Of a stretch of 64,000 nt of DNA, positions 8,092-27,502 are shown one piece after another (positions within the stretch are counted from its first letter, which is position 1; every line of letters starts with the position of its first letter). The translations under genes and the position numbers were made by a program. The notes beneath the pieces are model-generated. The model saw only the letters and a program-made list of their open reading frames with translations, was not told the DNA's origin and made no database searches. The DNA comes from Candidatus Thorarchaeota archaeon (GTDB lineage: Archaea; Asgardarchaeota; Thorarchaeia; Thorarchaeales; Thorarchaeaceae), in NCBI GenBank assembly GCA_018335335.1, contig JAGXKG010000001.1:253600-317599 (forward strand), in the 5' to 3' direction.

Positions 8092-9981
8092 TTATTCCTC
8101 CTGTATAATGGCTCCTACAGGACACACATCCACACAAGTGCCACAGAAGTTACAGAGATCTTCGTCAATGGCCGCCTTGCCTGTTTCGGTATCTAAATAC
8201 ATGGCAGGACAAGATAAACGATTGAGACATCTTTTACACCCTGTACAAAGCTCCTCATCAACATAATAGGGCGAAGGGTGTTCATTGTTTTTTCTTCGTT
8301 CTGCAGCTGTAAGAAGCGCACAGGGAGCCTTTGAAATCATCACAGCAGGTGCTTGATTTTCACGTATCCAATCTAACATCTTTCGGATATCTGCTACAAG
8401 ATCGGCTAATGGACCAAAAGGATCAACCGTTTGCACATATTGAACACCCAGACCCTCACAAACCTTTTCTATATCTAGAGAGGGAACTTGTTCGCCCATA
8501 CCAGTTAAGCCCGTACCGGGATGGGGTTGATGCCCTGTCATAGCGGTCGTTCTATTATCTAGCACAACAAGAGCTATTGGGTGTTGATTATAGACAGCAT
8601 TTGCAATACCCGGCAGTCCAGAAGCAAAGAAGGTACTGTCACCAATGGAAGCAACAACATCCTGATCGGTTACGCGAGCAATTCCACAAGCGGTAGTAAT
8701 TGAAGAACCCATATCAAAAAGGATGTCAGCTGTCTCCAAGGGAGGAGAAATACTCAACGTGTAACAGCCAATGTCTGAAGGGTAGATCGCTTTTCCTCGA
8801 GTGGCAGTTCGAATTGCGTAGTAAGTTGCTCGATGAGGACAACCGGGGCACAAAAGAGGAGGGCGAGGAGGGAGTTCCGGTAACCCCTCTTTCATATCTT
8901 CAATTTCTCGCCAGTCAACAGGTGGCTCTCGATTCATAATTCTTGAGAGGACATTCATTACAATCTTGGGACTATATTCGTATACCTCAGGGAAGTAACC
9001 CTGTTCCTTTCCAAGGATGGTTACATCAATCTCCTCCAATTGAGCTATTCTTCGGGCATGGGTTTCCAGAAAAGGTTGAAGCTCCTCAACGATAATTATT
9101 CGTTCATGTCGACTGAGAAGCTGCTTAATCTTTTCGTCTGGAACAGGATGTGACATTCCAATCTTTAGTATTTCAGCATCGAGCTCCATTGTTGATAGTG
9201 CTTCGAGAACATAGTTATACGAGACTCCACTAGTAAGGATACCGAGATCTCCTGAACCTTCAAAGAAATTCAGTTCAGAGGAGTTGGAAATTTCTCGGGC
9301 TTTTTCTATTTGTTCAAGAAGCCATGGATGTCGTTTCCTTGCCACAGCCGGAACCGGAACAAAACGGAAGGGATCCTTTTCGAATGAAACCGTTTCAGGA
9401 CGTTCCATAATCTTGTCGTAGATGATTGGAGCGCGTGTATGATTGACACGAGTTGTCGTACGAAGAAGAAAAGGTAATTCAAGACGTTCAGAGTATTCAT
9501 ACGCCTTATGAAGCATCTCTTTTGCTTCAATAGGATCAGCGGGTTCAAGCATTGGCACATTTCCCATTAAAGCGTAGTATCGGGAATCATTCTCATTCTG
9601 GGAACTCCACATACTTGGATCATCAGCTACAACAATAACCATACCAGCCCTGACACCCACATATGCCAAGGAGAAAAATGGGTCAGCCGCAACATTGAGT
9701 CCTGGTCCTTTACAAACCATCATGGATCGAGATCCAGAAATAGCCGCAGCACCTGCAACTTCCATAGCTACCTTCTCATTTGAACTAAACTCAAAATAGA
9801 AGTCTTCAAGGTGTGGTGCCATTCTAGCAAGGTTGTTGCCAATTTCACTACTTGGGGTTCCAGGATACAATGCTACAAGACGAACACCAGATTCGAGTAC
9901 GCCTCTTGCAATGGCTTCGTTAGCCAATAATAGAACTTCCTTACCAGATGCATCTTCTAAGAGAGTATCGACTTTTGTCAA
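8092..9981 (-). CDS. iorA: Indolepyruvate:ferredoxin oxidoreductase alpha subunit
   Basis: 629 aa; TPP-binding domain; CPGCPH motif; C-terminal 2x[4Fe-4S] motifs (CTGCKRC...CP, CNFCGTCVDVCP). Confidence 0.9.
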   Translation of the reverse strand: MTKVDTLLEDASGKEVLLLANEAIARGVLESGVRLVALYPGTPSSEIGNNLARMAPHLEDFYFEFSSNEKVAMEVAGAAAISGSRSMMVCKGPGLNVAADPFFSLAYVGVRAGMVIVVADDPSMWSSQNENDSRYYALMGNVPMLEPADPIEAKEMLHKAYEYSERLELPFLLRTTTRVNHTRAPIIYDKIMERPETVSFEKDPFRFVPVPAVARKRHPWLLEQIEKAREISNSSELNFFEGSGDLGILTSGVSYNYVLEALSTMELDAEILKIGMSHPVPDEKIKQLLSRHERIIIVEELQPFLETHARRIAQLEEIDVTILGKEQGYFPEVYEYSPKIVMNVLSRIMNREPPVDWREIEDMKEGLPELPPRPPLLCPGCPHRATYYAIRTATRGKAIYPSDIGCYTLSISPPLETADILFDMGSSITTACGIARVTDQDVVASIGDSTFFASGLPGIANAVYNQHPIALVVLDNRTTAMTGHQPHPGTGLTGMGEQVPSLDIEKVCEGLGVQYVQTVDPFGPLADLVADIRKMLDWIRENQAPAVMISKAPCALLTAAERRKNNEHPSPYYVDEELCTGCKRCLNRLSCPAMYLDTETGKAAIDEDLCNFCGTCVDVCPVGAIIQEE

Positions 9982-10112
9982 TTATTTGCCTCCGATCCAG
10001 TCCAAGGCTAGTTCAAGTTCAGGAGAAATTAAGTTACGCTATCAGTCTTGTGGTGAACGAGCGGAGTTGTTACACGTGTTCTATTATTGTACTACTTGTA
10101 ATACATGACTAA

Positions 10113-10136
10113 CTCCCCTCTATTTCCACTGGAAAT
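10113..10136 (-). promoter_or_regulatory. Origin recognition box (ORB)-like element, reverse orientation, followed by AT-rich stretch
   Basis: Reverse strand reads TTCCAGTGGAAATAGAGGGGAG, matching archaeal ORB core TCCAGTGGAAAC plus G-tract; >75% AT with duplicated AAAAAATGGAGA at 10137-10260. Confidence 0.5.
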
Positions 10137-10747
10137 AAAAAATGGAGAAGCTCAAAAGACATTTGTATATACATTAAAAAAATGGAGATAAAATAAATAT
10201 GAACTAGCCTATATATATATCTTTCCATAGACCTTCTTATTTCTTCATATTTATTCTACACGAAATCAGGGGGTCATATGATCAATTGGAACACGTGTAA
10301 CAAATTATGCAATTCTTTCACCTTTGAACTTCTTGGACTACCTCAAAAATACGAAATTGTACTACGTCTTGGAATTCAGTGAAAAGATCTAAGCATTCTT
10401 GATAACATACTTCTGGAATCAATATGGCAGAATCATTCACTCTGTTTGCATCTTCACATGTATCTAGAAGACCGGGTTTTCTACGTTCTTTATATCCTTC
10501 TGTTGTCTTCCATTTGTATTTGTAACCATACAGCTGCTTTGTGAATGAAACCCGTTTGGAATTTGCCTCCTTTGAGCTATTACAGTCATACAAAAACAAA
10601 AACGATTTCACATATGACACCACAGATAGTGGAACACATGTTCTAAATTTCAAGCTCTGTATTATACTTTTGAGAGGAAAATGTTAAATCGATGTGTCTC
10701 GCGACTTTCAGTATCGACCAACAGATTCATTGAAAGCTGGTGAATAC

Positions 10748-12061
10748 ATGGTTACTTTCGCTATTCGCAAGGAAGAGAAAGCTTTCGAAGCTAGAACGCC
10801 TTTGGTACCTGAACATCTAGGCAAGCTAATTATCGATGAAGGCATTGACTTCATCGTTGAACCTAGTAATCAACGAGCTTTCAATGACAAAGAATACGAA
10901 GATGTTGGAGCCACTCTTTCCAGTGTCAAAGGTAGCAACGCATCGGTTGTTCTTGGACTTAAAGAGATGCCCAATTCCGTTTTTGAACCTAGGAAAGTCT
11001 ATGTTTTCTTTAGTCATACAATCAAAGGCCAGGAGCATAATATGCCTATGCTCAGACAAATAATGAATACTGGTGCAACACTTCTTGACTATGAGCTAAT
11101 TGTTAATGATGAAGGATCGCGGCTGGTATATTTTGGTAACTGGGCTGGTATGGCCGGAATCTCCGATACACTAAGGCTTCTAGGCCGAAGACTTGAATAC
11201 GAGCAAATCGATCCTAATCCATTCCTAGGGTTGAAGCCGACTCTCGATTGTAATGGACTCAAGGGGCTACGAAACGAGTTCAAAAAACTGGGCCGAAGAA
11301 TAAACGAACTAGGTCTTCCTCAATCCACTCTTCCTTTTGTAGTAGGCTTTGCTGGATATGGAAATGTTTCTTCAGGAGCACAGAAGCTCTTTGACATTCT
11401 TCCACACAAGACTGTGAACCCTGAAGATTTGGGCAATTTGGAGCCGCTTGAAGATACCCTGTACAAGTGTGTTTTCAAGGAAGAACATATGTTCAGACCT
11501 CTCGATAAAAGCGCCGATTTTGACTTACAGGATTATTACAAGAAAGGTTCCAAAGCCTATCAAGCTAGATTCCACCGTTATGTCCCGCATATTACTGTGC
11601 TAATGAATTGTATCTATTGGAGTCCTAAGTATCCTCGACTTCTAACCAAGGACTTCATCACGGATCATTGGGACGAAAGCCATCGCACACTCAGGATTGT
11701 TGGAGATATATCCTGTGACATAAATGGAGCAATAGAATTCACTGAAACCTCTACAAAACCAAACAAACCTGCTTTCACATATATTGTCAAAGAGGATAGA
11801 ATTCTTCATGGTGTGAAAGGGGAAGGCCCTGTCGTGGTGGCTGTGGACAATCTTCCTGCTGAACTACCCAAGGAATCTTCGTATTCCTTTAGCCAAACTC
11901 TGCTTCCCTTCATTCCCCCTCTTGCTTCAGCTGATTATTCCTCGTCCTATGCAGAGCTTCAACTTCCCCGTGAGCTCAAGGACGCTATTATTGTCTACAA
12001 AGGCGATTTAACAAACGAATTTGAATATTTGAAAGAGCATCTAACGGAGGAAAAGACATGA
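10748..12061 (+). CDS. Lysine-ketoglutarate reductase (saccharopine dehydrogenase, L-lysine-forming), AASS N-terminal-domain homolog
   Basis: Strong collinear similarity to the LKR half of eukaryotic alpha-aminoadipic semialdehyde synthase (RTPLVPEHL, VYVFFSHTIKGQEHNMPML, VYFGNWAGMAGI); start moved to internal ATG (MVTFAIRKEE) by homology. Confidence 0.85.
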   Translation: MVTFAIRKEEKAFEARTPLVPEHLGKLIIDEGIDFIVEPSNQRAFNDKEYEDVGATLSSVKGSNASVVLGLKEMPNSVFEPRKVYVFFSHTIKGQEHNMPMLRQIMNTGATLLDYELIVNDEGSRLVYFGNWAGMAGISDTLRLLGRRLEYEQIDPNPFLGLKPTLDCNGLKGLRNEFKKLGRRINELGLPQSTLPFVVGFAGYGNVSSGAQKLFDILPHKTVNPEDLGNLEPLEDTLYKCVFKEEHMFRPLDKSADFDLQDYYKKGSKAYQARFHRYVPHITVLMNCIYWSPKYPRLLTKDFITDHWDESHRTLRIVGDISCDINGAIEFTETSTKPNKPAFTYIVKEDRILHGVKGEGPVVVAVDNLPAELPKESSYSFSQTLLPFIPPLASADYSSSYAELQLPRELKDAIIVYKGDLTNEFEYLKEHLTEEKT

Positions 12062-13374
12062 AAGAAATCTTATGTTTGGGAGCAGGCCTTGTTGCGAAAC
12101 CATATGTTGACTATTTGTGCGGCCATGGTTACAATGTAGTTGTAGCTAGCAGAACAAAAGCAAAAGCCGAGAAACTAGTTAGTACATATGACAATGCCGA
12201 GGCGAGTCAATTCAATATCAAAACAGATCATGAACTATTAGAAACCATGGTTTCAAGTGCTGATCTCGTTTGTTCGCTTTTGCCCTATACCTTCCACGTA
12301 CAAGCCGCGAAAGTTGCAATTGAGTATGAGACTCCATTCTGTACTACTTCTTACATTTCTGATGAGATGTGGGCTTTGGATGAGGATGCTAAAGAAGCTA
12401 GCATTATTCTGTTGAATGAATGTGGTGTGGATCCTGGTATAGATCACATGAGTGCCAAAAGAATCATTGACGAAATTCACACCCGGGGTGGCGAGATTGA
12501 GAGTTTCACTTCATATACCGGTGGGCTTCCTGCACCTGATGATAATGACAATCCATTTGGTTACAAGCTTTCTTGGAGCCCAAGAGGCGTACTCTTGGCA
12601 GGAACTAATGATGCTCATTTTCTCCGCGACGGTGAACAAGTTGAGATTCCTGCCTCCGAGCTTTTCGGGAACTGTGAAGAAATGGAGATTCCAGGTTTAG
12701 GTACCTTTGAAGGTTATCCGAATCGAGATAGTATCTCGTACATTGACATATATTCCATACCTGAGACAAAGACAATGATTCGCGGGACTCTTCGCTATCC
12801 CGGTTGGTGTAGAACTCTCAAGGCAATTACTGATTTGGGCCTTCTCAGTCTCGAAGAACAAGATTTCGATGGGATGACCTATTATGGCTTAGTCAGTGAT
12901 TTGACCGGTTCACCTCAGAATAATTTGAGAACCGCTGTTAGCGAACTTGTCAACTTAGAACCGAATGATTCTGTACTGGACAGACTGGAATGGCTTGGTC
13001 TGTTTGATGAAAAGACCATCCCCAAAGATACCAAGACCCCCCTAGATGCGTTATGTAACCTATTCGAGCAAAAGCTACAGTACGGTCCAAATGAGCGTGA
13101 CATGATAGTTATGCGCCATCAGTTTATTGTCAACTATGACAACAAGAAGGAAGAAATCACCTCTACATTAATTGACTATGGCCATCCTGGCGGTGATTCT
13201 TCTATGTCGAGAACTGTTGCATTGCCGGTTGCTATCGCCAGTCATATGATTTTGGAAAACGAAATCAATTTGGAAGGGGTATTCCGTCCCACTCTACCTG
13301 ACATATACGAACCAATCCTGAATGAACTGGAAAAGCATGACATCGAATTTGAAGAACACAGGAAACCAATATAG
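12058..13374 (+). CDS. Saccharopine dehydrogenase (L-glutamate-forming), AASS C-terminal-domain homolog
   Basis: 438 aa; Rossmann N-terminus ILCLGAGLVAKP; collinear with the SDH half of eukaryotic AASS/LYS9 (GVDPGIDHM, GGLPAPDDNDNPFGYKLSWSPRGVL, EGYPNRDS, GTLRYPGW, YGPNERDMIVMRH); ATGA overlap with upstream gene. Confidence 0.85.
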   Translation: MKEILCLGAGLVAKPYVDYLCGHGYNVVVASRTKAKAEKLVSTYDNAEASQFNIKTDHELLETMVSSADLVCSLLPYTFHVQAAKVAIEYETPFCTTSYISDEMWALDEDAKEASIILLNECGVDPGIDHMSAKRIIDEIHTRGGEIESFTSYTGGLPAPDDNDNPFGYKLSWSPRGVLLAGTNDAHFLRDGEQVEIPASELFGNCEEMEIPGLGTFEGYPNRDSISYIDIYSIPETKTMIRGTLRYPGWCRTLKAITDLGLLSLEEQDFDGMTYYGLVSDLTGSPQNNLRTAVSELVNLEPNDSVLDRLEWLGLFDEKTIPKDTKTPLDALCNLFEQKLQYGPNERDMIVMRHQFIVNYDNKKEEITSTLIDYGHPGGDSSMSRTVALPVAIASHMILENEINLEGVFRPTLPDIYEPILNELEKHDIEFEEHRKPI

Positions 13375-13402
13375 ATAGCACTCGCTTTACACTATCCTCA
13401 GT

Positions 13403-14023
13403 TCACTCTCTATGTATCTGGAATGTAGAAAGGATTCTCTCAGCTCGCTTGATATCGCTCTGAACTTGACTCAGTTCAGTCTTTAGTCTATATGTGTATC
13501 CAGTCCTGTTTCCATACCTTTCTAAATCTCCTTGTCCTTCATCCCAGATTCTTGCAAGGTATGTTGAGGCAGTGCTTTTTGGCATTTTTTCGCCAAAAGT
13601 AGTTTCATAGATTTCTGCGACATCCAATGATGAGAACTTTCCATGTTTAAAAGATGCATAGATAACCATCTGCATCTTTTCGAAGTTACTCATGGAATCG
13701 AAATGAATTTCATCTAGTATCGATTCTTGTACTGCTTCTTCTTCGCGAAATTCACAACCTGTGCTAGTCTCAAGAAACACTTGGAATTTCTCGAACATTT
13801 CATCCACAGAACCTCTGATCTGGAAGCTCGATTCTTCCCCTGTGGCTTCATCATGTACTAGAATCTTGAAATCAAAAGGATTCTCGGTAAGTTTCAAGAT
13901 TTTCTTGAATCTATTAAGAGCTTCATCCGGCTGAACATATTTGCATTCGAAAATTTCCCTTGAACCTGGACCAGAGCTGTATGTGAACTCATATACATAG
14001 GGTGTTCGATCACTCTTGTCCAA
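13403..14023 (-). CDS. Hypothetical protein with probable C-terminal winged-helix
   Basis: 206 aa; C-terminal STASTYLARIWDEG...RTGYTYRLK resembles a wHTH recognition helix plus wing; borders the ORB/iteron region. Confidence 0.45.
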   Translation of the reverse strand: MDKSDRTPYVYEFTYSSGPGSREIFECKYVQPDEALNRFKKILKLTENPFDFKILVHDEATGEESSFQIRGSVDEMFEKFQVFLETSTGCEFREEEAVQESILDEIHFDSMSNFEKMQMVIYASFKHGKFSSLDVAEIYETTFGEKMPKSTASTYLARIWDEGQGDLERYGNRTGYTYRLKTELSQVQSDIKRAERILSTFQIHRE

Positions 14024-14059
14024 GTTAATCCCACAATTTCATTTTTGTTGGTGTAGCTC

Positions 14060-14510
14060 CAGTTAAGAAGCCATTCACATCTTTACAATTAGCTCTGCAA
14101 ATAAGTGTAAGTATGTGAATCGTATATACCTCGATAGTAGCTTTATAATGCAACATATTACCAAAAAACCTTCTGTCTCAATTGAAAACAACAAAAACAG
14201 CCTAATAAACCCTTTTAGAACAAAAATACCCCTCATAAATTCCCAAAGTCAATTTAAAGAATTTTCTCCAATCTCTTCCTTGTTCACTTTGCTATCAGAT
14301 TTGTGAATGGTTGAAAAGATGCTTCATAAGTCTCGTATTCAATCTCCAGTGGAAACGAAGGGGTGGCCTTATTCACATGGGTAAACAGAGTTATGAACTC
14401 TTCATTTTGATATTAGAAGTATTTCCGCTTCGTTCACAAAAACGTATTCACATTCTTGGCGCCATTCACACTAGAGCAATGTGAATATGTGTAGATACTG
14501 TGAAATGTAA
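14060..14510. repeat. Iteron-like array of TTCACA(T)/(A)TGTGAA boxes in a 519-bp intergenic region
   Basis: About 9 copies of the hexamer in both orientations in ~450 bp (about 0.25 expected by chance), including GCCATTCACA twice and ATTCACA...TGTGAAT inverted pairs. Confidence 0.45.
14345..14364 (+). promoter_or_regulatory. ORB-like element (TCCAGTGGAAACGAAGGGGT)
   Basis: Near-exact match to archaeal ORB consensus (TCCAGTGGAAAC core plus GGGG tract). Confidence 0.5.
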
Positions 14511-14542
14511 ATATATTCTCGCCCTAATGCCGCTGTTGTGTG

Positions 14543-16360
14543 TTATAGTACTGTTACAGATTTGGCTAAGTTACGAGGTTTATCTGGATCATACCCCTTT
14601 CTTGTAGCCATGTAGTAGCTAAATAGCTGCAAAGGTATCACAAAAGGCATCACTGAAAACTCAGGCTCAATGCCTTGTGGAACTTGGAAAACGTGATCGG
14701 AAAGGTCCTTCAATTCTTCATCTCCTTTTTCAATCACTGAGATGATAGAAGCTCCTCTTGCTTTCATTTCCATGATATTCCCAACAAGCCTTTCCCTTGT
14801 TTGGTCTTTGGGGGCAACAAAAATGACCGGATATCCTTCTTCAACCAATGCTATTGGACCATGTTTCGATTCGCCTGCACTATAGGCTTCTGCGTGATTA
14901 TATGCAATTTCCTTCAGCTTAAGTGCGCCTTCTCTAGCTGTTGCTATAGATATACCACGCCCTAAGAATAGGAGACTTGGAGCATCATAATAGACTCCCG
15001 CTATGCTCCTTGCTTTTTCTTCTTCCGTAGCTATTACTGTAGATATTACATCGGGAATTTTTTCAAGAGATCTTTCCTTTCTCTCAATCAGTTTCTCACT
15101 TGAACCAGAGAAACGACCTAGCTCAATAGCAATCTGGGCCAACGCGGTTAATTGGACCATGAATGTCTTTGTAGCGGCCACTCCAATTTCCGGCCCTGCT
15201 TGCGTAATTATTGTATGATCCGCGACCCTCGTGATTGAGCTACCTACTACATTGGTCACTGCTATCACAGTTGAACCAAACTTCTTTGCATACTTGGCTG
15301 CGCTAACCGTATCAGTAGTTTCACCTGACTGAGTAATTGCCAATACTAGATCATCTTCAGACAAGGTATCATATATCGTGTCTTCAAAATCGCTTGCTAG
15401 CTCAAAAACCGGGACGATTTCTGACATCGATGCAAACATATGCTTACAGGCCATTCCTGCATGACCTGAAGTTCCCATCGCTATTACATAGATTCGCTCA
15501 GAATTGACAATCATTTCTCCCGCCTTCTCAATGGTTTCCTTGCGAATTCTGAGAGTGTTACGTACAGCGTCCGGCTGCTCATGAATTTCCTTCAGCATAA
15601 AATGTGGAAAACCCGCTTTCTCCGCTTGGTCCGCAGTCCAGCTGATTTTCACGGCATCCCTTTCAACTTCAGAACCATCAGAGAGTTTTTCGAGTTTTAT
15701 CTCCTCTGGAGTGATTATGGCAATTTCTCCATCCAATAAAAGAATCATATCTCTTGTCATAGGAAGAAAAGCTGGAATATCGGACGAGACATATGATGCG
15801 TCTTTTCCCTTCCCAATCACGAGTGGGTTTCCATCTCGTGTACAAACTATACGATCTGGTTCGTCTACTCTCATAGCTACTATCGCATATGTACCATTTA
15901 TTCTGGTCGTGACTTGAGCAACGGCTTCTTTCAAATCATAGCCCTGTTCAAGTAAATCTTCAATCATGTGAGGGATAACTTCTGTGTCTGTTTCCGATTT
16001 GAATTTATGGTTTTTCTTCAATTCTTTCCTTAATTTCATGAAGTTATCTATTACACCATTATGTACAACAGCAACTCTGTTATCACAATCAAAATGTGGG
16101 TGTGCGTTTAAAAGAGATGGAACCCCATGAGTCGCCCATCTGGTATGCCCTATTCCCATTCTTCCTGGTAAATCATCCAGATTCAGTCGTTTATGAACCT
16201 CGTCAATTTTTCCCTTGTCCTTCTTAGTGTGAAGCTTTCCTTCGTAGATGGTTGTTAAGCCTACTGAATCATACCCTCTATACTCCAGACGTTTCAATGC
16301 CTGATGAAGAAAAGGTGCAACTTCTCCACGTTTTTGGACGACACCTACTATACCACACAC
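14543..16360 (-). CDS. glmS: Glutamine--fructose-6-phosphate aminotransferase
   Basis: 605 aa; N-terminal MCGIVG class-II amidotransferase nucleophile; two SIS domains. Confidence 0.9.
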   Translation of the reverse strand: MCGIVGVVQKRGEVAPFLHQALKRLEYRGYDSVGLTTIYEGKLHTKKDKGKIDEVHKRLNLDDLPGRMGIGHTRWATHGVPSLLNAHPHFDCDNRVAVVHNGVIDNFMKLRKELKKNHKFKSETDTEVIPHMIEDLLEQGYDLKEAVAQVTTRINGTYAIVAMRVDEPDRIVCTRDGNPLVIGKGKDASYVSSDIPAFLPMTRDMILLLDGEIAIITPEEIKLEKLSDGSEVERDAVKISWTADQAEKAGFPHFMLKEIHEQPDAVRNTLRIRKETIEKAGEMIVNSERIYVIAMGTSGHAGMACKHMFASMSEIVPVFELASDFEDTIYDTLSEDDLVLAITQSGETTDTVSAAKYAKKFGSTVIAVTNVVGSSITRVADHTIITQAGPEIGVAATKTFMVQLTALAQIAIELGRFSGSSEKLIERKERSLEKIPDVISTVIATEEEKARSIAGVYYDAPSLLFLGRGISIATAREGALKLKEIAYNHAEAYSAGESKHGPIALVEEGYPVIFVAPKDQTRERLVGNIMEMKARGASIISVIEKGDEELKDLSDHVFQVPQGIEPEFSVMPFVIPLQLFSYYMATRKGYDPDKPRNLAKSVTVL

Positions 16361-16446
16361 GCTGAAATTCTCCTGATATCTTGTTGTTCAACTTCAAATA
16401 CTGAAGCCAGTGCGTATAAGAAGCTTCAATCCGGAAAAGATGTCTA

Positions 16447-16794
16447 TTAACCAGTAAGTTCTATTTCAATGTATACCGAATCCGGTATCTTTACACGCAT
16501 GATTTGTCTAATGGCTCTTTCGTCCGCATCAATATCAATCAAGCGTTTGTGGATTCTCATCTCCCATTTGTCCCAAGATTGAGAACCTTGTCCACACGGA
16601 GTCTTTCGCGTTGGAACAACCATTCTTCTAGTAGGTAAGGGAATGGGACCAGCCATGCGGACACCTGTCTTGCGGGTGATGCGCTTAATCTGACTGCATA
16701 CATCATCTAGATGTTCAGTACTCGTACTTGACAACCTTATTCTTGCTCTTTGTGACATTTGGAATCGCACCCGCTTGGTAGGTGTCTTTTCCAA
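16447..16794 (-). CDS. rps10: 30S ribosomal protein S10 (uS10)
   Basis: 115 aa; ARIRLSSTS...[24 protein letters not shown] typical uS10; not in the usual tuf operon context. Confidence 0.9.
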
Positions 16795-16909
16795 CCTTTT
16801 TCAATCTGGATAAAAAGCTTGTCTTATGCATGGTCATTTCAAATAAAAGAAAAGAGTAAAAGCTATTATTTGGTTCTCCTGTCTAAGAAAATACCGGTAG
16901 GCTAGTCTC

Positions 16910-17701
16910 TTGAATGACCTAATAATTGTGAAGCTCGGCGGTTCAGTGATTACCAACAAAGGCGAATCACCCCCATCTGTCAACAACGATCGGATACATC
17001 GAATAGCACGCGAACTCGCCAATCACAATGGCCCTATGATAGCTGTGTTAGGTGGTGGGGCCCATGGTCATCAACCAGCCAGTCGCTATGGATTTGGCAA
17101 CCCTAAAACTCCAAGGCAAAAACGTTTGGCCGGTCTTCCCAAAATCCGGAACAATATGTCAATTCTTTCTTCGGAAGTAGTTGGCTCTTTGCAAGATTCG
17201 GGTCTGCCAGCTGTTGCCTTTCCACCTTTTACCTTTGCTCGTCTTAGGAATAACCACATCCAGCATTTCCCCTGTTCGTTCATAGAAAAGGCATTGAATT
17301 CCGATTTCCTCGTCGTCACTCATGGGGATGTATGTTTTGATGAAAAATTAGGAGCTTCCATATTGAGTGGAGATACGATTGTAGTATATTTGGCCAACAG
17401 ACTCAATCCAACGGGAGTTTACATCGGAACAGATGTTGATGGCGTCCATTATGAAAATCCTGATACTAATCCCAAGGCAAAAGTAATACCTGTAATACAA
17501 TCCAATGACATTGAAAAGGCCTTATCCAGCACTGGCCCATCTTCATCTGTGGATGTTACTGGTGGGATGGACAACAAAGTTAGGGAATTACTCACCATAA
17601 ATCAAAGAACAAAAATTGCCATATTCAATCTGAATATTGCTGGACGACTGTCTACTCTTCTAAAAGGTAAGACACCAATCTGTACACTCATTCAACCATG
17701 A
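16910..17701 (+). CDS. Isopentenyl phosphate kinase (amino-acid kinase family)
   Basis: 263 aa; KLGGS, VLGGGAHGH, THGD, LSGDTIVVYLAN, GTDVDGV, VDVTGGM motifs matching archaeal IPK. Confidence 0.85.
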   Translation: MNDLIIVKLGGSVITNKGESPPSVNNDRIHRIARELANHNGPMIAVLGGGAHGHQPASRYGFGNPKTPRQKRLAGLPKIRNNMSILSSEVVGSLQDSGLPAVAFPPFTFARLRNNHIQHFPCSFIEKALNSDFLVVTHGDVCFDEKLGASILSGDTIVVYLANRLNPTGVYIGTDVDGVHYENPDTNPKAKVIPVIQSNDIEKALSSTGPSSSVDVTGGMDNKVRELLTINQRTKIAIFNLNIAGRLSTLLKGKTPICTLIQP

Positions 17702-20700
17702 ACAAACTGCCTAAATTGGAAGAGATCCCTTCTTTCCAATACCTAATTGCTACATTATCTGGTATAGCATCATCATCTTCTATGATACTAGAATCTCCCA
17801 AGATACATACAACCTCATGTGTTTGACATTCATCACAAGCTGTTTCCGAAATTGAATTGGATATGCGTTTCATTCTGTTTTTTCCAGGTAATACCGCATA
17901 AGATTTGTCTCCTACACAAAAATCGAAAGGATAATGGTCCGACACAATCTCCCTTCCCCTTCTTTTCAATTCCTGCACAATAGCTTCCAAAGCTATTAAC
18001 TTGATACTTTGAAACTTCTTCGCTCCAAGCACCCAAAGACCTGGCTCCAAATTGTGTAAATTCGACTCCTTGCTCAATCTAAACAGATGACACTCCCCTG
18101 TCTCGATCATCTGGGAAAGGATTCGCATTCCTTCGCCTTTTTCCAATGGAATCGATCTTGCCCTTTTCGACTGAATGGCTGTTGTACTAATGAAACTGAG
18201 AAAATCCCCCCACTCAATTGCACCTCCAGAAACAGAAAGAAATTCCCTCAATAACCCAAACCAAATTCTTCTACCAACGCTTGTTCCCGATTTCTTGGTT
18301 GCCCCGTTGAACTGCTCCAAAGCCGACTCAATTTCGTGGCTCTTTTCCTTAGGCTCTTTCTCACCTATTTGAGAACCAGTGCACGTACTAAGCATTCTAT
18401 CAATTGAGCTCTGAAACGCAGGCACAATGGTTACCAAGTCGAATCCATCGATTTTTTCAATTCTTTCGCGAACTTTCGCTGCTGCAATGCTTCCTCTAAC
18501 TATAACATACAGCTCTTCAATTGTATTCCCCATTTTTTTCATACTTTCTTTGATTACATTGATTATTGTTTCAATAGATGGTATTCTAATCCGTTCAGGT
18601 ACTATCAAAATAGCGTTACTTCCCACAATAAAATTGGGTGTGGTTTCCGAACCATCATCTTCGAATCTTCGTATCTCATCCGACTTCTCAAGTATGTACT
18701 GCGATATTGCTGCTTCTATCGATTCGTTGGCGTTCCCCGGCACAGAGAATACAAAGCCTCCCTTAACGACAGGAATTGCTTCCCTCTGGATTATTGAGAG
18801 TGATATGAGCTCCTCGATTAGCTGCTCCCGTGTCATATCAATGTGGTCATAGTTGAGGTTCACCAACAACTCCTCCAATTGTTCTTTTGTTACAAAATCA
18901 CGAGATGCAAGATATCCGGTTACTAATCCAGATATTTCTCCTATGACATGTTCTCTTCCTTTTGATGTTCTTCCCCTTTCCACACAAACTCTCTCTTCCC
19001 CATCATGAGATACCATCATGGGAGTGTCATTGCATTCAACCCCCTCAATTATCTCTTCATCAACTCGATTGCGAATATGTGACGTAGATTCTTCCAGCCC
19101 ATATTCCGGCATCAACGTTTTGATTTCGAAGACACTCACATCTGGTAATTTGATCAAAGCATTGCCTACGGTGAGTGACTGCAAATACTCCTCCTGTCTA
19201 TCATCTAGAGAAAGATATCTTCTAGCAACCCCACTATCATACGGTAATCTAAAGGTAATTTTCGTGGAGGTATTGGCCAAAATATTCGATGATATATTGG
19301 GTCTTGTTGAAACCACCACGACACCCTGTCCAGTCGCTCTTTGAAGCATGACCATGGACTCTCCCGTTGTGACATCTGCGGCTGAACTTCTCGTGTAACT
19401 CTCGGGTACCAAATTGTAGGCCTCTTCAAGAACTACAATATGTCGAAGCCCTTCGGTTATACCTCTCTGCATGGCAGAATCAAAGACTCTTTTCACAATA
19501 ACGTTGTACAAGAGCCTCGCTGCATCCATGCCCCCAATCCGTGCTACATAGCTCAAGTCTACAATAACTCTTTCATCAAGTAGTGTTGAAATTTCCAACG
19601 TCTTTTTCCCAGGCCCAAAAACTGTAGCTAAGGGTTCCCTGAATAAGATTTGAAGCCGATTTAGCAATGCATCTCTAGTCATTTCGGAAATGTGGCCTTT
19701 AGTACCCGCAGCAAAAATCATTCGTTCAAGGGATGCCACTGTTTTCTCTTCCTCTTCTAGAACTACTTTTTCCACAGATTCTCGTAGAAGTCTTTCCATG
19801 GCGGGTGAAAGCTCTGCTGAAACACCCCTCTCGTTCAATAACTCTCTGATTATGGCGAAAGTGATATGTGCGTGTCTTTCGGGACTATCTCCTTCTGGCG
19901 CAAAAAGGTTGAGAACGAAATTATTTTCGGCACCAGGAATCAAAACATCAACGGACCCAAACCCTACCTCTCGAAGATCCGAATATTCAGAACCCTTTAC
20001 ATCGAATACTAACCATGGAATTTCCGTTTTGGCACTTAGCTCTGCAATGAGTCTCTTCACCAATGTGGTTTTCCCTGTACCTGTTGCCCCCATCACTGCT
20101 ATATGCTCTCTGAGCCAATCTTTCTTCAATCCAACCTCACTAAGACACCGAGAATTGAATACTGCCCGTCCGATTACTAACTCGTTGTTGATAGTCTCCT
20201 TTTCCGGAATAGAAAAGAATGGTACAGCCTTTCCTGTCACTACTGGCAGTTGCTGGGACGGTGTGTTGAAGTAACCAACAAGTCTCTCCAAATGTATTTT
20301 GGAGCTTTTCACAGGCCGCCTGTTCAATACTCGATAGCCGTTTCTACCTCCTAATTTTACCGATTCAAGTGAAAGATTCCCTTTTTCACCCCATATCGAT
20401 ATTAGAAGCCCCCTAACGCCTTCTTCAGCAAGCCTTAACTCAATTTGCGAGTTAGCTTGTATTGTTACGTAGATACTTGCTTCAAACCATGCATCAACAT
20501 CTCCAATTTCCTTGTACTCCTCCAGCAACCTCTCTTTCATAGCATGGTCAGAGAGTGACTCCCTCTTTTCACGCTCCTTTCTGCGAATCTTCTTCCAGTG
20601 TTTTTCCAATGCCCTTTTCTCTCTTCCAGGATTTGCGGGCTTAAATGCACAAGTCAGACTAGCATTGTAACCTTGTCTTAGAAGCCCTACTAGAAAAGTT

Positions 20701-21416
20701 CCTATCTGTGTCGCTTCTTCGTTAGGATTGATGCTCGGATTTCCAGCAACAACAATGATTTTCCTATGCGTTCCATCCCGGCTAGTTTTTTCTTGCCGCC
20801 TTGTTTCTAGATTCGGTTCACGCATGGTTTCAATAGCTTCTCTTAGTTCTCCCTCCCTCAATCTTTCTACCTCAACCGTATTGAGCGTGCTACGTAAGAT
20901 AGCTTCACATCTAGTAGATTCAATTTGGAGCTGTTGTCGCAAGCTTGTGACTGAATCTCCCCGTGCTGTTATGAATAGTCGGATGAAAGGCTCTTGGTTG
21001 ATAGTACCTACTTCATATGCCATAGACGTATAATCATCCATACCTTCACGAAGAGCAAGAAGTGCTGACACGACATACTTATGCTCTCCATTTTCGTTAA
21101 TCTTAACTGATCCAGTAACCGAATTGAGTTGAAGAACACAAGTTGCGACAATAGACCTATCCAGCTGTACAACAAGAATATCATTCTCTATCAACATCGA
21201 TATCTTCTGTGATTTGATTTTGGAACCTATTACGATACCTCCAGTAATCGGGGGAAATAGAAGAAGAAGACCTTCGACCAAGGCTCTCATAGGTACAGCT
21301 AATGGCGGCGCAACCCCTGTGATTGGCAAGACATAGGCCATTACAAAATAGAATATTGAAAATGCGGTTGAACTTGGCCATGCAATTCGTATGCACTTTA
21401 GAAACTTGACATCCAT
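17688..21416 (-). CDS. Giant membrane-anchored HerA/VirB4-like (DUF87) P-loop ATPase
   Basis: 1242 aa; two N-terminal hydrophobic helices; central Walker A IAVMGATGTGKTT and Walker B-like HIVVLEEAYNL as in HerA/VirB4/TrbE ATPases; ~450-aa C-terminal extension of unknown function. Confidence 0.6.
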   Translation of the reverse strand: MDVKFLKCIRIAWPSSTAFSIFYFVMAYVLPITGVAPPLAVPMRALVEGLLLLFPPITGGIVIGSKIKSQKISMLIENDILVVQLDRSIVATCVLQLNSVTGSVKINENGEHKYVVSALLALREGMDDYTSMAYEVGTINQEPFIRLFITARGDSVTSLRQQLQIESTRCEAILRSTLNTVEVERLREGELREAIETMREPNLETRRQEKTSRDGTHRKIIVVAGNPSINPNEEATQIGTFLVGLLRQGYNASLTCAFKPANPGREKRALEKHWKKIRRKEREKRESLSDHAMKERLLEEYKEIGDVDAWFEASIYVTIQANSQIELRLAEEGVRGLLISIWGEKGNLSLESVKLGGRNGYRVLNRRPVKSSKIHLERLVGYFNTPSQQLPVVTGKAVPFFSIPEKETINNELVIGRAVFNSRCLSEVGLKKDWLREHIAVMGATGTGKTTLVKRLIAELSAKTEIPWLVFDVKGSEYSDLREVGFGSVDVLIPGAENNFVLNLFAPEGDSPERHAHITFAIIRELLNERGVSAELSPAMERLLRESVEKVVLEEEEKTVASLERMIFAAGTKGHISEMTRDALLNRLQILFREPLATVFGPGKKTLEISTLLDERVIVDLSYVARIGGMDAARLLYNVIVKRVFDSAMQRGITEGLRHIVVLEEAYNLVPESYTRSSAADVTTGESMVMLQRATGQGVVVVSTRPNISSNILANTSTKITFRLPYDSGVARRYLSLDDRQEEYLQSLTVGNALIKLPDVSVFEIKTLMPEYGLEESTSHIRNRVDEEIIEGVECNDTPMMVSHDGEERVCVERGRTSKGREHVIGEISGLVTGYLASRDFVTKEQLEELLVNLNYDHIDMTREQLIEELISLSIIQREAIPVVKGGFVFSVPGNANESIEAAISQYILEKSDEIRRFEDDGSETTPNFIVGSNAILIVPERIRIPSIETIINVIKESMKKMGNTIEELYVIVRGSIAAAKVRERIEKIDGFDLVTIVPAFQSSIDRMLSTCTGSQIGEKEPKEKSHEIESALEQFNGATKKSGTSVGRRIWFGLLREFLSVSGGAIEWGDFLSFISTTAIQSKRARSIPLEKGEGMRILSQMIETGECHLFRLSKESNLHNLEPGLWVLGAKKFQSIKLIALEAIVQELKRRGREIVSDHYPFDFCVGDKSYAVLPGKNRMKRISNSISETACDECQTHEVVCILGDSSIIEDDDAIPDNVAIRYWKEGISSNLGSLFMVE

Positions 21417-21657
21417 GTATCAAGACACCCCACAGGCTTTCAAGTGTGTTTGCACTTCTTTCTCTCTCCGTTCTTGGTTCGAAGCTACATCTATCAGGTA
21501 ACCTGTTGAGATGTACCGTACTATGTAATATGAAGTCACCAAATAATCATGATATCAACATCTTTGCGCTAATTCCGTTTCCAGAAAAAGCATCTGCCCC
21601 TCGTTGTACGAGGTTAATAGAGCAGTGTCACAATATGAGTTGGGTTAGAATCTGGAA

Positions 21658-23658
21658 ATGTTGAGCAGTACATCTCAAGAAATCAGGATAAGTTTTGATT
21701 CAGTAGAATCAAGATTCGTTATGATAGTAGCTGTATTACTTTTCATCTTGCTGTCATACAATTCAGTTCCCGTCGCAGGAAGTGAAACTCCCTCTTTTGC
21801 TCGTGGCGAGAAGGTTACTATTGAATGCTACCTTCTTCAAAATGGAACGTACGGCGATCCAGTTCCTAACCAAAAGGTAGAATTCTTTGACCAATCGTAT
21901 GACACCTATATTGATTCATCAATAACCGACGAAAACGGTTTTGCATCTGTTCAATGGCAAATTCCGATTACCCATCCTTTGGGTGATACAATCCTTAACA
22001 TAACTTTCCGAGGGAACGAATCCTTGGCCCTTTCTCCATCAGTACAATGGACTGTTATTACTATACTATCATCTACTAATATCACACCAACCATTCATGA
22101 CACAAGTCTACATCCCTCTGATGTTCTCAATGTGTCTGTGAGACTGACTGACGACACTCGAACCCCTTTAAATTCTCAACTAATCAAGTTTTTGAGCGAT
22201 GGACAAACAATTCAATCTGGTTTCACGGATAATAATGGCTCATTCCAACTCCTTTTACAATGCAATCTATCCTGGGCTAATTTTGGTTACAATACAATCA
22301 ACATAATGTACAACGGAAATTCTACTCAATATCTTCAATCAAGTCATTCAAGTATTGGTTTTAATTTAGAGAAGAAGGCAACGAAACTCGCCATCTCAGA
22401 GAATAACACACTCTATAGCAAACTTAACGATACCCATCGTTTTTCTGTTACTCTATCATCAGGAGAAGAATTAGTAAGAAATGCAAGTATTGAGATTAGG
22501 ATTGACAATGAATATTATGACACCATATTCACTACAAGATTGGGTACAGCATTCGTAGATATCCAATTCAACGAGTCATTCACTCTAGGCCCTCATACAA
22601 TGAACGTACACTATCATGGCAGTGAACGTTATGAAGCATCGACTCTATTTCAAAAGATCATACTATCAAGCCCCTGTTTCATAGATGTTGCTGAGGAAAA
22701 AACTCTGACTGTAAATCTCCGTAATAGACTAACGGTAGAGTTACGCGACACTCTTAATCGTCCAATTCGAAGCGGGAATGTAACCATAACTGATACAATT
22801 TCAAGAAAGAATGTTTCTGGAATTCGGCAAGAAAACGGAATATATTCTTTTACTATTCTTTTGAGAAAAAAACTTGGGAGCCGAGAACTTCTGCTTCGCA
22901 TCTATGATATGCCCTACTTATCGAATCATACATATTCTTTCCAAGTTTATGTGTGGTCCAAGCCCGAATTCGAATTTCTATATTGTAGTACAATAGGATA
23001 TGCAGTACCTGGACAGACTATATCTCTCCTAATCTCATTAACTGATTTTTATGGTCCTATCGTCCACACTGAAGTTCAGATTCTGGTGAATAACAAGGAG
23101 TACGGAAAATCTCATAGTGATGGAAATGGTGAACTCTCTACCAGCATCACTATACCAAAAAAAGAAGGTCATCACTCCATTGCTTTGCATTATGGAGGAA
23201 ACAAATCTGCCTTCGTTCTAAATAGAACCCGAATTTTCAGAATTAACGCATCCCATAGCATCCCAGTTGTTCCATGGTCTATTTCAACCCGATTGATCCC
23301 CATGGAGAAGCGAATTTCTGTCAACATGATGCTGCTTGCCCTTAATGGCTCCAAAATTGAGGGTTTAAAGACTACTTACAACTGGCTAAATCAGAGTTAT
23401 CGCGCCAGAACATCAAAAAGCGGCTCATTGGAGTTTTATCTTAGGCTTCCTAATCATCCTGGTACTTATACTCTAGAATACCATATAGATTCAACTAGAG
23501 GAACAAAAGACTACGATGGTTTTCTCGAAATTGAAATAACGCTAATCGATATTAATGGTTCGAGTGTTTTTGGTTTGTTTCCTTTCACCTTATCCATAGC
23601 CTTCTCATTTTCATTAGTCTTGTTGCCGTCTCTCAGAAAAAGATATCTCTTAGGATAG
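21658..23658 (+). CDS. Secreted/surface glycoprotein with C-terminal transmembrane anchor
   Basis: 666 aa; N-terminal signal-like hydrophobic segment; >30 N-x-S/T sequons; C-terminal hydrophobic segment FGLFPFTLSIAFSFSLVLLP followed by basic tail RKRYLLG. Confidence 0.55.
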   Translation: MLSSTSQEIRISFDSVESRFVMIVAVLLFILLSYNSVPVAGSETPSFARGEKVTIECYLLQNGTYGDPVPNQKVEFFDQSYDTYIDSSITDENGFASVQWQIPITHPLGDTILNITFRGNESLALSPSVQWTVITILSSTNITPTIHDTSLHPSDVLNVSVRLTDDTRTPLNSQLIKFLSDGQTIQSGFTDNNGSFQLLLQCNLSWANFGYNTINIMYNGNSTQYLQSSHSSIGFNLEKKATKLAISENNTLYSKLNDTHRFSVTLSSGEELVRNASIEIRIDNEYYDTIFTTRLGTAFVDIQFNESFTLGPHTMNVHYHGSERYEASTLFQKIILSSPCFIDVAEEKTLTVNLRNRLTVELRDTLNRPIRSGNVTITDTISRKNVSGIRQENGIYSFTILLRKKLGSRELLLRIYDMPYLSNHTYSFQVYVWSKPEFEFLYCSTIGYAVPGQTISLLISLTDFYGPIVHTEVQILVNNKEYGKSHSDGNGELSTSITIPKKEGHHSIALHYGGNKSAFVLNRTRIFRINASHSIPVVPWSISTRLIPMEKRISVNMMLLALNGSKIEGLKTTYNWLNQSYRARTSKSGSLEFYLRLPNHPGTYTLEYHIDSTRGTKDYDGFLEIEITLIDINGSSVFGLFPFTLSIAFSFSLVLLPSLRKRYLLG

Positions 23659-23665
23659 GAATAAT

Positions 23666-23775
23666 TGGTGCTCCGGCCGGGACTTGAACCCGGGTCGGAG
23701 GATCGAGAGTCCCCCATGCTGGGCCGGACTACATTCGGTGGACTTAAGGCAAAGACCTTAGACTTCTACCGGAGC
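23666..23775 (-). tRNA. tRNA-Glu (anticodon CUC) with ~32-nt insertion near position 9/10; CCA encoded
   Basis: Acceptor GCUCCGG/CCGGAGC, anticodon arm GGGGA-CUCUCGA-UCCUC, T-arm CCGGG-UUCAAGU-CCCGG; D-arm AUGUAGUCCGGCCCAGCAU matches archaeal tRNA-Glu; extra AGAAGUCUAAGG...CCACCGA between acceptor and D-arm. Confidence 0.7.
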
Positions 23776-23976
23776 TTCTTAGCACCAGCTCGGAGCGGGA
23801 CAGCACCATTTTGAGCTCAAATAAGCCTTTCTCAACGGCATTTGGTTTTCATAGTCGATTCTTAATAACCACTGCTCTAATACTCCCATTTGTGACATCT
23901 GCAAAGAATCTTTGTATTTACAAGGAGGAAGTGGAAAAATGGTGGAGAGATACCTTCAGTCAAACCCATCAAATTG

Positions 23977-24204
23977 TTAGGGATTCAACAGATTTGATAA
24001 ATTACTCCAACTGTCTTCCAATAATCCAAGCAGATCTGAGATGACATCTTGAGCCCATCCAGTAGCTTGAAGTATAACTGCAATTACGATAGAAACGGTA
24101 ACTACTGCTATTCCCAACAATAGACTCTCTTCAACAAGCGGGCCACCTGTAGTATCTTGCAGAGGGTTGCTTCTTCCTGTCATTATCAACATTCTCAATA
24201 GCAA
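23977..24204 (-). CDS. Small membrane protein, possible Flp/class-III-signal pilin-like
   Basis: 75 aa; ...TTGG-PLVEES-LLLGIAVVTVSIVIAVIL: Gly followed by acidic residues then a ~22-aa hydrophobic helix, like Flp-pilin G/xxxxEY...hydrophobic; directly downstream of a TadA/FlaI-type ATPase. Confidence 0.3.
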   Translation of the reverse strand: MLLRMLIMTGRSNPLQDTTGGPLVEESLLLGIAVVTVSIVIAVILQATGWAQDVISDLLGLLEDSWSNLSNLLNP

Positions 24205-24379
24205 GTTGTTAATGTGCTATTTTAACCCAACAGAGACGGATTATTCTATCCATATTTCAAAATTATGATTTTCTTGAAAATAGTCAATTTTCTTCGGTTC
24301 CACAATTCACCAATGAGAGTGTGTCTCAACATCGACCGTGATCAAGAATCTCCCCCGCAACCGAAACATAGATTCTTCT

Positions 24380-26050: not shown

Positions 26051-26210
26051 TACTTTTCACATCAAGATACAAATCAATATTAGCTACTTCTCGCGTTCCG
26101 AAATTGAGTCACAGATGATCCCAGTTCCACCCCTCGGTTTTTTGCTACCAATTTAAGCCCCCTGTCGAATTAAGAAATTAGTTTTGAGTTAGAATTAGTG
26201 ATTGGAGTTT

Positions 26211-27236
26211 CTACTGACTTGTTATCCTAATACATTTCTTGATTACTCCGAAATGATCCCGAATACTATATTCTGCTACATCGGTTGCTTCAGAAGTGAG
26301 TTTCTGTGTAAGTGCTGATTGTTTTCCTGCTTTGACAGATATGACTCTGTCAGCGGCATAGGCTGCGGACACAGCAAAAATAAATGGATTTCTGCCACCT
26401 CTTCTTGAGGATGGAAATCCCCTTAAAATCGTCATTAGAATTTCCCTCAACTTGTTTTCGTATTCCTTTAATTCCCAGCCTCTTGATTGAACCCTCTCAA
26501 CTACTTCTGAATTATTCATCAACATAGATAGTATTCTAGGCACATATTCCCTCGGCTTCCGAATCCTTGGAACATAGCCGGTTGCTGACCGAAGATTAAT
26601 CGCTTCCCTGACTATGGTCCGAACACTGACTCTGTGACCACATTTATCGAAGGTTTCTGCTATCTCCTCGAGTGTTATGGGCGCCTCTTCTTTGAATTCT
26701 CTAACGGCCATGAGAAGACAAACTGCAATCAAAATGATATTGTTAGTCATCTTGTCTTCTGCTTCGTTCACCAGTTTCTTGTACAAGTAGGCGGTTCGAT
26801 TTCGAACCTGTTCGCTTATCATCAGGAGCTTAGAAACGCGATTGAGCGTTCTCAGTGCTCGATACTTAGCTTCATCGTCCCCTATTCTGATTCTAGTGCT
26901 ATATACACTCTTCAAACGTTGGAATTTCTTCTGGACTTTTCCTGATAATGCACTTCCTTTAGAATCACGGAAATACTTGTCTCTGTGAAATCCAATATAG
27001 CTTCCCAATCCATCTACTATATGCATTCTATTTCCTAACGATACATACATCGCCGCATCGGGGCTATCATCTGACTTCTGTTGCCCCATCTGATAAGTCG
27101 GATCTACGTATTCTCTTGATACTACTAGTCCACAGTCTAGACAGACGATATACCCCTCACTTGTTGCGAGAGCACCAGAACAATCGGGACAGGTACCAAG
27201 AAGCTCTCGATATGAATCAGCGGAATTGTCTGTCAA
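26211..27236 (-). CDS. tfb: Transcription initiation factor IIB (TFB)
   Basis: 341 aa; N-terminal Zn ribbon CPDCSG...CLDCG, B-reader, two cyclin-like repeats. Confidence 0.9.
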   Translation of the reverse strand: MTDNSADSYRELLGTCPDCSGALATSEGYIVCLDCGLVVSREYVDPTYQMGQQKSDDSPDAAMYVSLGNRMHIVDGLGSYIGFHRDKYFRDSKGSALSGKVQKKFQRLKSVYSTRIRIGDDEAKYRALRTLNRVSKLLMISEQVRNRTAYLYKKLVNEAEDKMTNNIILIAVCLLMAVREFKEEAPITLEEIAETFDKCGHRVSVRTIVREAINLRSATGYVPRIRKPREYVPRILSMLMNNSEVVERVQSRGWELKEYENKLREILMTILRGFPSSRRGGRNPFIFAVSAAYAADRVISVKAGKQSALTQKLTSEATDVAEYSIRDHFGVIKKCIRITSQ

Positions 27237-27502
27237 CGCGTTATACCCGATTATATCCTGTGTAGTCTATTCCCTTTTGGATTTCACAACTTCTTTGTAT
27301 GGAGAAGACAATAGATTATACATTCAATCATATCTCTACTTACCAACTACCAGTCAGATACGGCCTACTGGGAATGGGGGCAACCCGAAACTATTCTCCA
27401 AAAAATCCTGATCCTACGAAAGACACGAGCTACCAAGGTTATTCTAGTGAAAAAACAAAGCCGCTTCAAATGTTCTCGATTTGTCTTCTTTCCCCTAACT
27501 CC

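Follow-up and report, generated by a model that had tools for sequence, protein, structure and literature searches.

The subject of this analysis is a noncoding stretch of 336 bp (9982-10317) within a 64-kb segment of DNA from Candidatus Thorarchaeota, the whole of which (64,000 nucleotides) is called the window here, and in this short stretch we found a pair of origin recognition boxes (ORBs) in inverted orientation that enclose an AT-rich spacer, that is, a candidate chromosomal replication origin. The stretch lies upstream of iorA (8092-9981, - strand) and downstream of a small gene for a 97-aa protein, both genes being encoded on the - strand; the sequence-only reading that first pointed to the site had described a divergent noncoding region of ~700 bp between iorA and the LKR-like gene, which is not so, given that 10318-10611 (-) codes for this conserved 97-aa protein. 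The homologues of iorA, 74-93% identical, are annotated as Candidatus Thorarchaeota, and therefore the window can be ascribed, judging by these matches, to an archaeon of the Asgard group, one known through metagenomes. Around the site, the series of genes runs through hypF, iorB, iorA, the small gene, the LKR-like gene, a saccharopine dehydrogenase gene, a gene for a 206-aa protein, glmS, and the gene of ribosomal protein S10, and it is kept in seven related loci, which by iorA identity are L006/L007 (93%), L008/L009 (88%), and L010, L011, L012, L083/L084, and L085 (74-76%). The window and these seven loci make up the eight lineages compared throughout, with ~20-64 kb read per lineage; they are related to one another, although well diverged at synonymous and at noncoding positions. 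The elements found between iorA and the small gene are the following:

10067-10081 (unstranded): inverted-repeat arm on the iorA side, TTGTTACACGTGTTC, 15 nt, 100% complementary to 10289-10303
10113-10134 (- strand): ORB-a, a full origin recognition box, TTCCAGTGGAAATAGAGGGGAG, exact pattern match, matrix score 32.5 of 38.3
10135-10253: AT-rich spacer between ORB-a and ORB-b, putative DNA unwinding element (DUE), 119 bp, 77% AT
10137-10148 (- strand): copy 1 of the directly repeated motif TCTCCATTTTTT, 2 nt inside ORB-a
10177-10188 (- strand): copy 2 of the directly repeated motif TCTCCATTTTTT, 40 nt from copy 1
10254-10275 (+ strand): ORB-b, the degenerate inverted partner, TTCTACACGAAATCAGGGGGTC, matrix score 19.2
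10289-10303 (unstranded): inverted-repeat arm on the small-gene side, GAACACGTGTAACAA, pairing with 10067-10081

The sequence-only reading had placed an ORB on the reverse strand of 10113-10136, and the box TTCCAGTGGAAATAGAGGGGAG is real, with only its end misplaced, since the 22-mer stops at 10134. The dyad of ORB-a is turned towards the AT-rich spacer and its G-string away from it, towards iorA, the start of which lies ~130 nt downstream. The pattern TCCAGTGGAAANNNNGGGG, with 15 specified bases, has two exact matches in the 64 kb, one in ORB-a at 10115-10133 (-) and the other at 14345-14363 (+) in a lone third ORB that is described below, against a chance expectation of ~6e-5 estimated from base composition, and neither of these boxes departs far from the consensus CTTCCAGTGGAAACGAAAGGGGT that has been published for archaea (Table 2 of PMC4153887). 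The site had been credited with a single ORB, and the inverted partner at the far end of the AT-rich stretch, ORB-b, which keeps half of the dyad together with a G-string that also points away from the spacer, had been overlooked, as had the 15-nt inverted repeat around the unit and the further ORB at 14.3 kb. The ~125 bp of >75% AT noted beside the box are indeed there, with 10135-10254 being the most AT-rich 120-mer of the window (77.5% AT; the runner-up has 71.7%), and the word AAAAAATGGAGA, said to be duplicated in this stretch, was recovered at 10137-10148 and 10177-10188. The least stable 100-mer in the 64 kb is 10158-10257, with a nearest-neighbour free energy (dG) of -106.2, the next-lowest being -114.7 and the mean of all 100-mers -132.3 (standard deviation 5.5), which places it ~4.8 standard deviations away. 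The features that define an ORB-type oriC, namely the dyad TCCAGTGGAAA with its G-string, an inverted ORB pair, and an AT-rich, unstable DUE, are all present here.

This arrangement is a constant of the eight lineages. At a score of at least 14, each lineage has exactly three ORBs per ~22 kb, that is, the inverted pair upstream of iorA and the lone ORB, and in all eight the paired boxes are 117-123 bp apart, inverted, with their G-strings outward and a spacer of 70-77% AT. Both members of the pair score >29 in L010, L011, L012, L084, and L085, where the ORB-b position reaches 29-32; the box nearer the small gene scores weakly in the window, L006, and L008, and the stronger member of the pair varies by lineage. 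In the eight-way alignment of the intergenic stretch, the mean column identity is 52%, and the conserved islands are both ORBs, the palindromes outside them, an ATATA block, two CTCCAT(TT) motifs, the ACCACAAGACTGATA block, and the iorA ribosome-binding site; from this alignment, we take the islands to be the phylogenetic footprint of a composite element and not residual similarity. A search of 9900-14600 against Rfam (E<=1) returned no known RNA family, and therefore no RNA gene of a known kind accounts for the conserved blocks. Another conserved block, CACCACAAGACTGATAGCG as read on the iorA strand (10037-10055), stands in all lineages ~55-75 nt upstream of where iorA begins; it could be the iorA transcription start or a leader element.

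The ORB weight matrix (maximum 38.3) was built from the relatives alone, which makes the window an independent test, and its three matches there were 14344-14365 (+) with 36.7, 10113-10134 (-) with 32.5, and 10254-10275 (+) with 19.2, with the fourth-best reaching only 8.8 and the maximum in 30 Markov-shuffled windows being 17.4. As a background, we used 844 kb around 70 cdc6 homologues from metagenomes, of which those from Thorarchaeota are 72-78% identical and those from more distant archaea 39-53%, and these 844 kb gave one borderline matrix match (18.4) and nothing comparable to the ORBs of the window; no ORB was found within 10 kb of cdc6 in any of the 70 loci. ORBs are therefore scarce, and in the Thorarchaeota lineage the surroundings of cdc6 have none. 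The sequence-only reading had named a similar density of ORB-like words across the genome as evidence that would speak against an origin, and such a density is seen neither in the 844 kb nor elsewhere in the window; the search for further copies that it had proposed turned up ORB-b (10254-10275) and the lone ORB (14344-14365).

The same boxes could in principle serve as transcriptional operators, through which a regulator of the Orc1/Cdc6 family would control iorAB and the gene of the 206-aa protein, with the AT-rich stretch being promoter DNA and no replication starting there. Orc1 paralogues can regulate transcription, as in the case of Orc1-2 in Sulfolobus (PMC6061795 and PMC9738581); ORB-a lies at the distance from the iorA start given above, there is a TATATATA block in the spacer, the lone ORB sits in a gene's regulatory region amid operator-like repeats, and lone ORBs far from any origin are reported in Methanomassiliicoccales. 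This explanation, however, accounts neither for the strict inverted geometry of 117-123 bp with outward G-strings, nor for a spacer that is the least stable DNA of the 64 kb, nor for the strand-independent skew switch at the ORB pair that is presented next, and the 844 kb of Thorarchaeota and related DNA, with hundreds of promoters, are devoid of ORBs. We therefore hold that operators as the whole explanation are improbable.

When raw GC skew is cumulated along the window, the curve bottoms out near 44 kb and shows nothing at 10 kb; it tracks gene orientation and was rejected as an origin test. Because of this dependence on gene orientation, we used a gene-strand-corrected GC skew at third codon positions (GC3), which was split into a coding-strand term and a strand-independent term, r, given in the orientation of the window. 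To the left of the ORB pair, r was 0.00, -0.04, +0.10, +0.06, +0.04, +0.05, +0.15, and +0.12 in the eight lineages, and to the right, in the same order, -0.18, -0.13, -0.17, -0.13, 0.00, -0.11, -0.16, and -0.21. The step at the ORB pair goes in the same direction in all eight lineages, and the first 4.2 kb rightwards are negative in all eight, with a change of sign in six of them, or in seven when the extended left flank is counted, given that a contig of identical sequence carries the window organism 10 kb further left, where r = +0.08. At cdc6 no such switch was seen in 15 of 19 Thorarchaeota loci, r being negative on both sides and merely weaker downstream. The disparity extreme, that is, the switch in strand composition, maps to the ORB pair. 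As a separate observation, the strand-independent GC3 skew is ~-0.24 over 14500-31600 for genes on both strands and ~-0.05 beyond cdc6, with the same decay at the cdc6 loci of the relatives, which may come from a fork directionality that weakens as the origin is left behind.

If the site is an origin, its leading strand would be C-rich; the sign of the switch alone does not separate an origin from a terminus. The locus might accordingly be read as a replication terminus or another landmark of the forks, with a G-rich leading strand and ORBs that do not initiate: the + strand passes from G-rich to C-rich across the site, which is a terminus by the bacterial convention, and the oriC of P. abyssi obeys that convention (PMC4164010). 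The 206-aa protein also has a weak fold match, of a generic winged-helix kind, to the replication terminator protein of B. subtilis, which ranks among dozens of equal matches to PadR/MarR proteins. To our knowledge, no sequence-specific terminus has been described in archaea. It is the architecture of inverted ORBs flanking a DUE that defines an origin, and the inverted skew polarity seen here is the one reported at experimentally mapped haloarchaeal origins (PMC1868953), so that a terminus is, in our judgement, very improbable.

The initiator gene orc1/cdc6, presumably the partner that acts in trans on the ORB pair, lies on the same 64 kb:

31872-33068 (+ strand): orc1/cdc6 initiator gene, with Pfam Cdc6_C, Cdc6_lid, and AAA domains and NCBIfam NF001623

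Its product scores 372 bits against NF001623 (cut-off 311), and in the exact look-up it was matched from the ATG start at 31872, not from the TTG start of the open reading frame finder. It is the sole copy in the window, 21.6 kb from the ORB pair, as the earlier estimate of ~21 kb had it, and the unlinked layout recurs in the contig SMTZ1_10000031, with cdc6 at 88599-89789, iorA at 113281-115182, and a distance of ~23 kb between origin and cdc6, whose relative orientation is also unchanged; the loose linkage between origin and cdc6 is therefore conserved. In archaea, an orc1/cdc6 gene (or whiP or a primase gene) usually adjoins the origin, although this is not universal. Just upstream of cdc6, at 31555-31652 (+), there is an intron-containing tRNA with an encoded CCA that was missed by ARAGORN and by the whole-window Rfam search and was picked up by Rfam on the small region with 36.2 bits, in keeping with the abundant tRNA introns reported for Asgard genomes (PMC11291895).

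Taking all this together, 10067-10303 is very probably a chromosomal origin of replication (oriC) in this Thorarchaeota archaeon, and one of the Orc1/Cdc6 type that is standard in archaea. The proposal that an ORB with a DUE, unlinked to cdc6, forms an origin here draws support from the inverted pair, its conservation, the rarity of ORBs, and the GC3 switch. Several points weigh on the other side. The C-rich leading strand is the reverse of bacteria and Pyrococcus, whose convention would make the site a terminus; the step is asymmetric, strong towards cdc6 but, in the window and L006, weak or close to zero towards iorA; and the flanking genes are not co-oriented with the outgoing forks. No orc1/cdc6 gene adjoins the ORB pair, and ORB-b is degenerate in the window's own clade. 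Binding of Orc1 and initiation in vivo are predictions made from the DNA sequence, and from the ~20-64 kb read per lineage the site is put forward as an origin, not as the sole or the main one.

As a working mechanism, the Orc1/Cdc6 protein encoded 21.6 kb away would bind the two inverted ORBs as monomers facing one another over the spacer, with the winged helix on the inner TCCAGTGGAAA dyad and the AAA+ domain on the outer G-string, and this binding would bend and underwind the DNA, so that the AT-rich spacer would melt, MCM would be loaded there, and forks would depart both ways. In the archaeal Orc1-ORB complexes already described, the winged helix is on the dyad and the AAA+ initiator-specific motif on the G-string side, with the DNA bent and underwound, and in archaeal origins the place of MCM loading is the AT-rich region that separates inverted ORBs.

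Besides the ORBs and the spacer, the unit carries accessory motifs. The core CTCCATTT of motif copy 1 lies ~6-8 nt from the ORB-a dyad, and both copies are found in the eight-lineage alignment as conserved spacer blocks, copy 1 as the CTCCAT(T) block and copy 2 as the ATCTCCATTT block. In the relatives there are likewise two TCTCCATT motifs, ~40 nt apart, the first of which is a few nt inside an ORB, and in L011 the motif pair stands beside the opposite ORB.

A perfect 15-nt inverted repeat with the core ACACGTGT encloses the whole ORB-spacer-ORB unit, and its iorA-side arm (10067-10081) belongs to the GAACACGTGTTC palindrome family, which related loci carry outside each ORB. In most lineages the palindrome is TAGAACACGTGTTCTA, 18 bp long and centred on CACGTG, and at up to one mismatch neither the 22-kb loci nor the window have it anywhere but at the origin locus. 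Each ORB has one copy on its outer side, and another copy stands in the divergent promoter of the small gene and the LKR-like gene, with an extra copy in L011, L084, and L085:

10632-10643 (unstranded): third palindrome copy, GAACACATGTTC, in the divergent promoter of the small gene and the LKR-like gene, conserved in all loci

The small-gene-side palindrome begins 23-25 nt outside its ORB in seven of the eight lineages, and the one on the iorA side, which may double as an iorA operator, is 13-56 nt outside the ORB in all of them. Compared with L010-L012, L084, and L085, the clade of the window shows three mirrored substitutions in the outer half of either arm flanking the origin, with which the arms are still exact inverted repeats of each other and no longer self-palindromic, the promoter copy at 10632-10643 being unchanged; this suggests that the arms act as a pair or were homogenised by template switching.

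A perfect, terminal-like inverted repeat of 15 nt around a 207-nt interior is also what might be expected if the 237-bp unit, instead of being the origin of the host itself, were a miniature transposable element or an origin captured from a plasmid or virus, and archaeal origins have been proposed to arise by the capture of extrachromosomal elements (PMC4010727). The unit, however, keeps its syntenic place, with the small gene on one side and iorA on the other, in eight lineages with diverged noncoding DNA, its repeat has no other copy in the 64 kb or in ~153 kb of relatives except for the nearby promoter copy, and no integrase, Rep, or transposase gene was found near the ORB pair. Moreover, the arms in most lineages are self-palindromic, operator-like sites and not the termini of an element, all of which leaves a mobile origin of the unit extremely improbable. 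The reading of the 15-nt repeat as a miniature inverted-repeat transposable element was rejected on synteny and copy number, with neither dispersed copies nor variable presence observed.

Around 4 kb beyond the origin unit there is a second group of conserved elements, to which the small gene next to the origin can be added:

14344-14365 (+ strand): lone third ORB, CTCCAGTGGAAACGAAGGGGTG, matrix score 36.7, the top score of the window
14073-14486 (unstranded): cluster of ATTCACA / TGTGAAT inverted pairs on either side of the lone ORB, within the regulatory DNA of the 206-aa gene
10318-10611 (- strand): gene of the 97-aa protein, with a Cas2-like ferredoxin fold in its model, conserved, between the LKR-like gene and the origin

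The lone ORB lies 4.07 kb from ORB-b in the same orientation, a distance from the pair of 4.05-4.13 kb across lineages, and it is nearly invariant in all eight. Within the 414-bp span of the cluster there are seven copies of GTGAAT, as against 57 in the whole 64 kb, and the intergenic stretch 14024-14542 holds ATTCACA-N9..13-TGTGAAT pairs, among them the invariant TGTGAATGGCGCC, in a layout that is kept in all eight lineages with its blocks invariant. The 206-aa protein (13403-14023, - strand) is conserved in Thorarchaeota and has no Pfam or NCBIfam match; in its model, which is of low confidence (predicted local distance difference test, pLDDT, 64.7), the C-terminal half is a winged helix like those of PadR, MarR, and RosR, followed by a long helix, and by this model it is a candidate for binding the TGTGAAT pairs upstream of its own gene. 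We read the lone ORB, by its setting, as a probable auxiliary Orc1 site in the autoregulatory region of a transcription factor and not as a second origin, because the skew switch sits at the ORB pair and not at 14.3 kb.

The 97-aa protein is 43-47% identical to its orthologues in L010-L012, with 27 invariant columns, and its family has 13 representatives in 1.84 billion proteins. Searches of Pfam, NCBIfam, and PDB sequences were all without a match, and the AlphaFold model (pLDDT 88.8) has Cas2 as its best fold match, with template modelling (TM) scores of 0.54/0.61, here outside any CRISPR context. The protein was considered as a binder of the palindromes and dropped, given that a Cas2-like fold is not obviously DNA-binding. 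Further along, at 17688-21416 (-), a few kb from the origin region, there is a gene for a 1242-aa protein with a HerA/DUF87 and TrwB-like ATPase core, which adjoins the amino-acid kinase and S10 genes in the relatives too. A contig scan with the saccharopine dehydrogenase protein gave Bacteroidota matches only, at 36-40% identity, with Thorarchaeota evidently missed by this pattern-based scan.

The palindromes, the TCTCCATT motifs, and the lone ORB probably modulate the origin or couple it to the expression of neighbouring genes. A more specific version would be a control layer particular to Thorarchaeota, in which a dimeric factor on the TAGAACACGTGTTCTA palindromes would bracket the ORB pair and also occupy the promoters of iorAB and LKR/SDH (saccharopine dehydrogenase), neighbouring genes of amino-acid catabolism, with the lone ORB tying Orc1 occupancy to the gene of the winged-helix regulator; we consider this full scheme speculative and rather unlikely as it stands. 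If true, it would mean that an Asgard archaeon couples the initiation of replication to its metabolic state and does so with an initiator gene that lies ~21 kb away.

Of all known organisms, Asgard archaea are the most closely related to eukaryotes, and in the literature searched we found no description of an Asgard origin at the level of ORBs. In that literature, Asgard origins are only guessed from GC-skew curves, for Odinarchaeum (PMC9246712) and for Atabeyarchaeia and Freyarchaeia (PMC11291895), and two recent reviews of Asgard replication are silent on cis elements. The locus described here provides an origin candidate defined by its sequence, accompanied within the same 64 kb by a matching Orc1 gene and with eight lineages at hand for comparison, and it indicates that at least one Asgard lineage keeps the classical, sequence-specific archaeal specification of origins; its inverted skew polarity, of the haloarchaeal type, matters for those Asgard origin calls that are made from skew minima. 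It could be described as a canonical Orc1-type origin in a lineage for which we found none described, with accessory elements that are lineage-specific and could be a new regulatory variant.

Among known systems, the closest comparison is with oriC1-type origins, such as oriC1 of Sulfolobus, oriC of Pyrococcus, and the haloarchaeal oriC1, for instance the minimal oriC1 of Haloarcula hispanica, with which the present locus shares an ORB sequence near the pan-archaeal consensus. As in H. hispanica oriC1, two inverted ORBs flank an AT-rich region with the G-strings at the outer ends, and further conserved repeats stand beside the ORBs, which in H. hispanica are a G-rich inverted repeat acting as an enhancer; a switch of skew polarity of the same sign at the site is shared with haloarchaeal oriC1. 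In contrast to this type, orc1/cdc6 is 21.6 kb away here (~23 kb in SMTZ1-45) instead of adjacent, the repeat is an 18-bp CACGTG-centred palindrome outside the ORBs and not a G-rich one inside, the window's clade has a degenerate ORB as one member of the pair, and the origin is known from its sequence. The composite oriC2 of Sulfolobus, with its mORB, C3, and C2 sites, is similar in having ORB-type sites by a DUE together with adjoining sites of another sequence class, to which the near-fixed spacing of 23-25 nt between ORB-b and its palindrome in seven of eight lineages can be compared; unlike here, where there is no second orc1 gene in the window, those extra sites are bound by known Orc1 paralogues. 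Lastly, the lone ORB at 14344-14365 recalls both the isolated ORBs found far from the origin in Methanomassiliicoccales and the ORB-rich titration region downstream of oriC2-cdc6E in H. hispanica, where initiator boxes also lie a few kb off an origin, with the difference that the latter is a dense cluster of ORBs, whereas in Thorarchaeota it is one extremely conserved ORB amid ATTCACA/TGTGAAT pairs.

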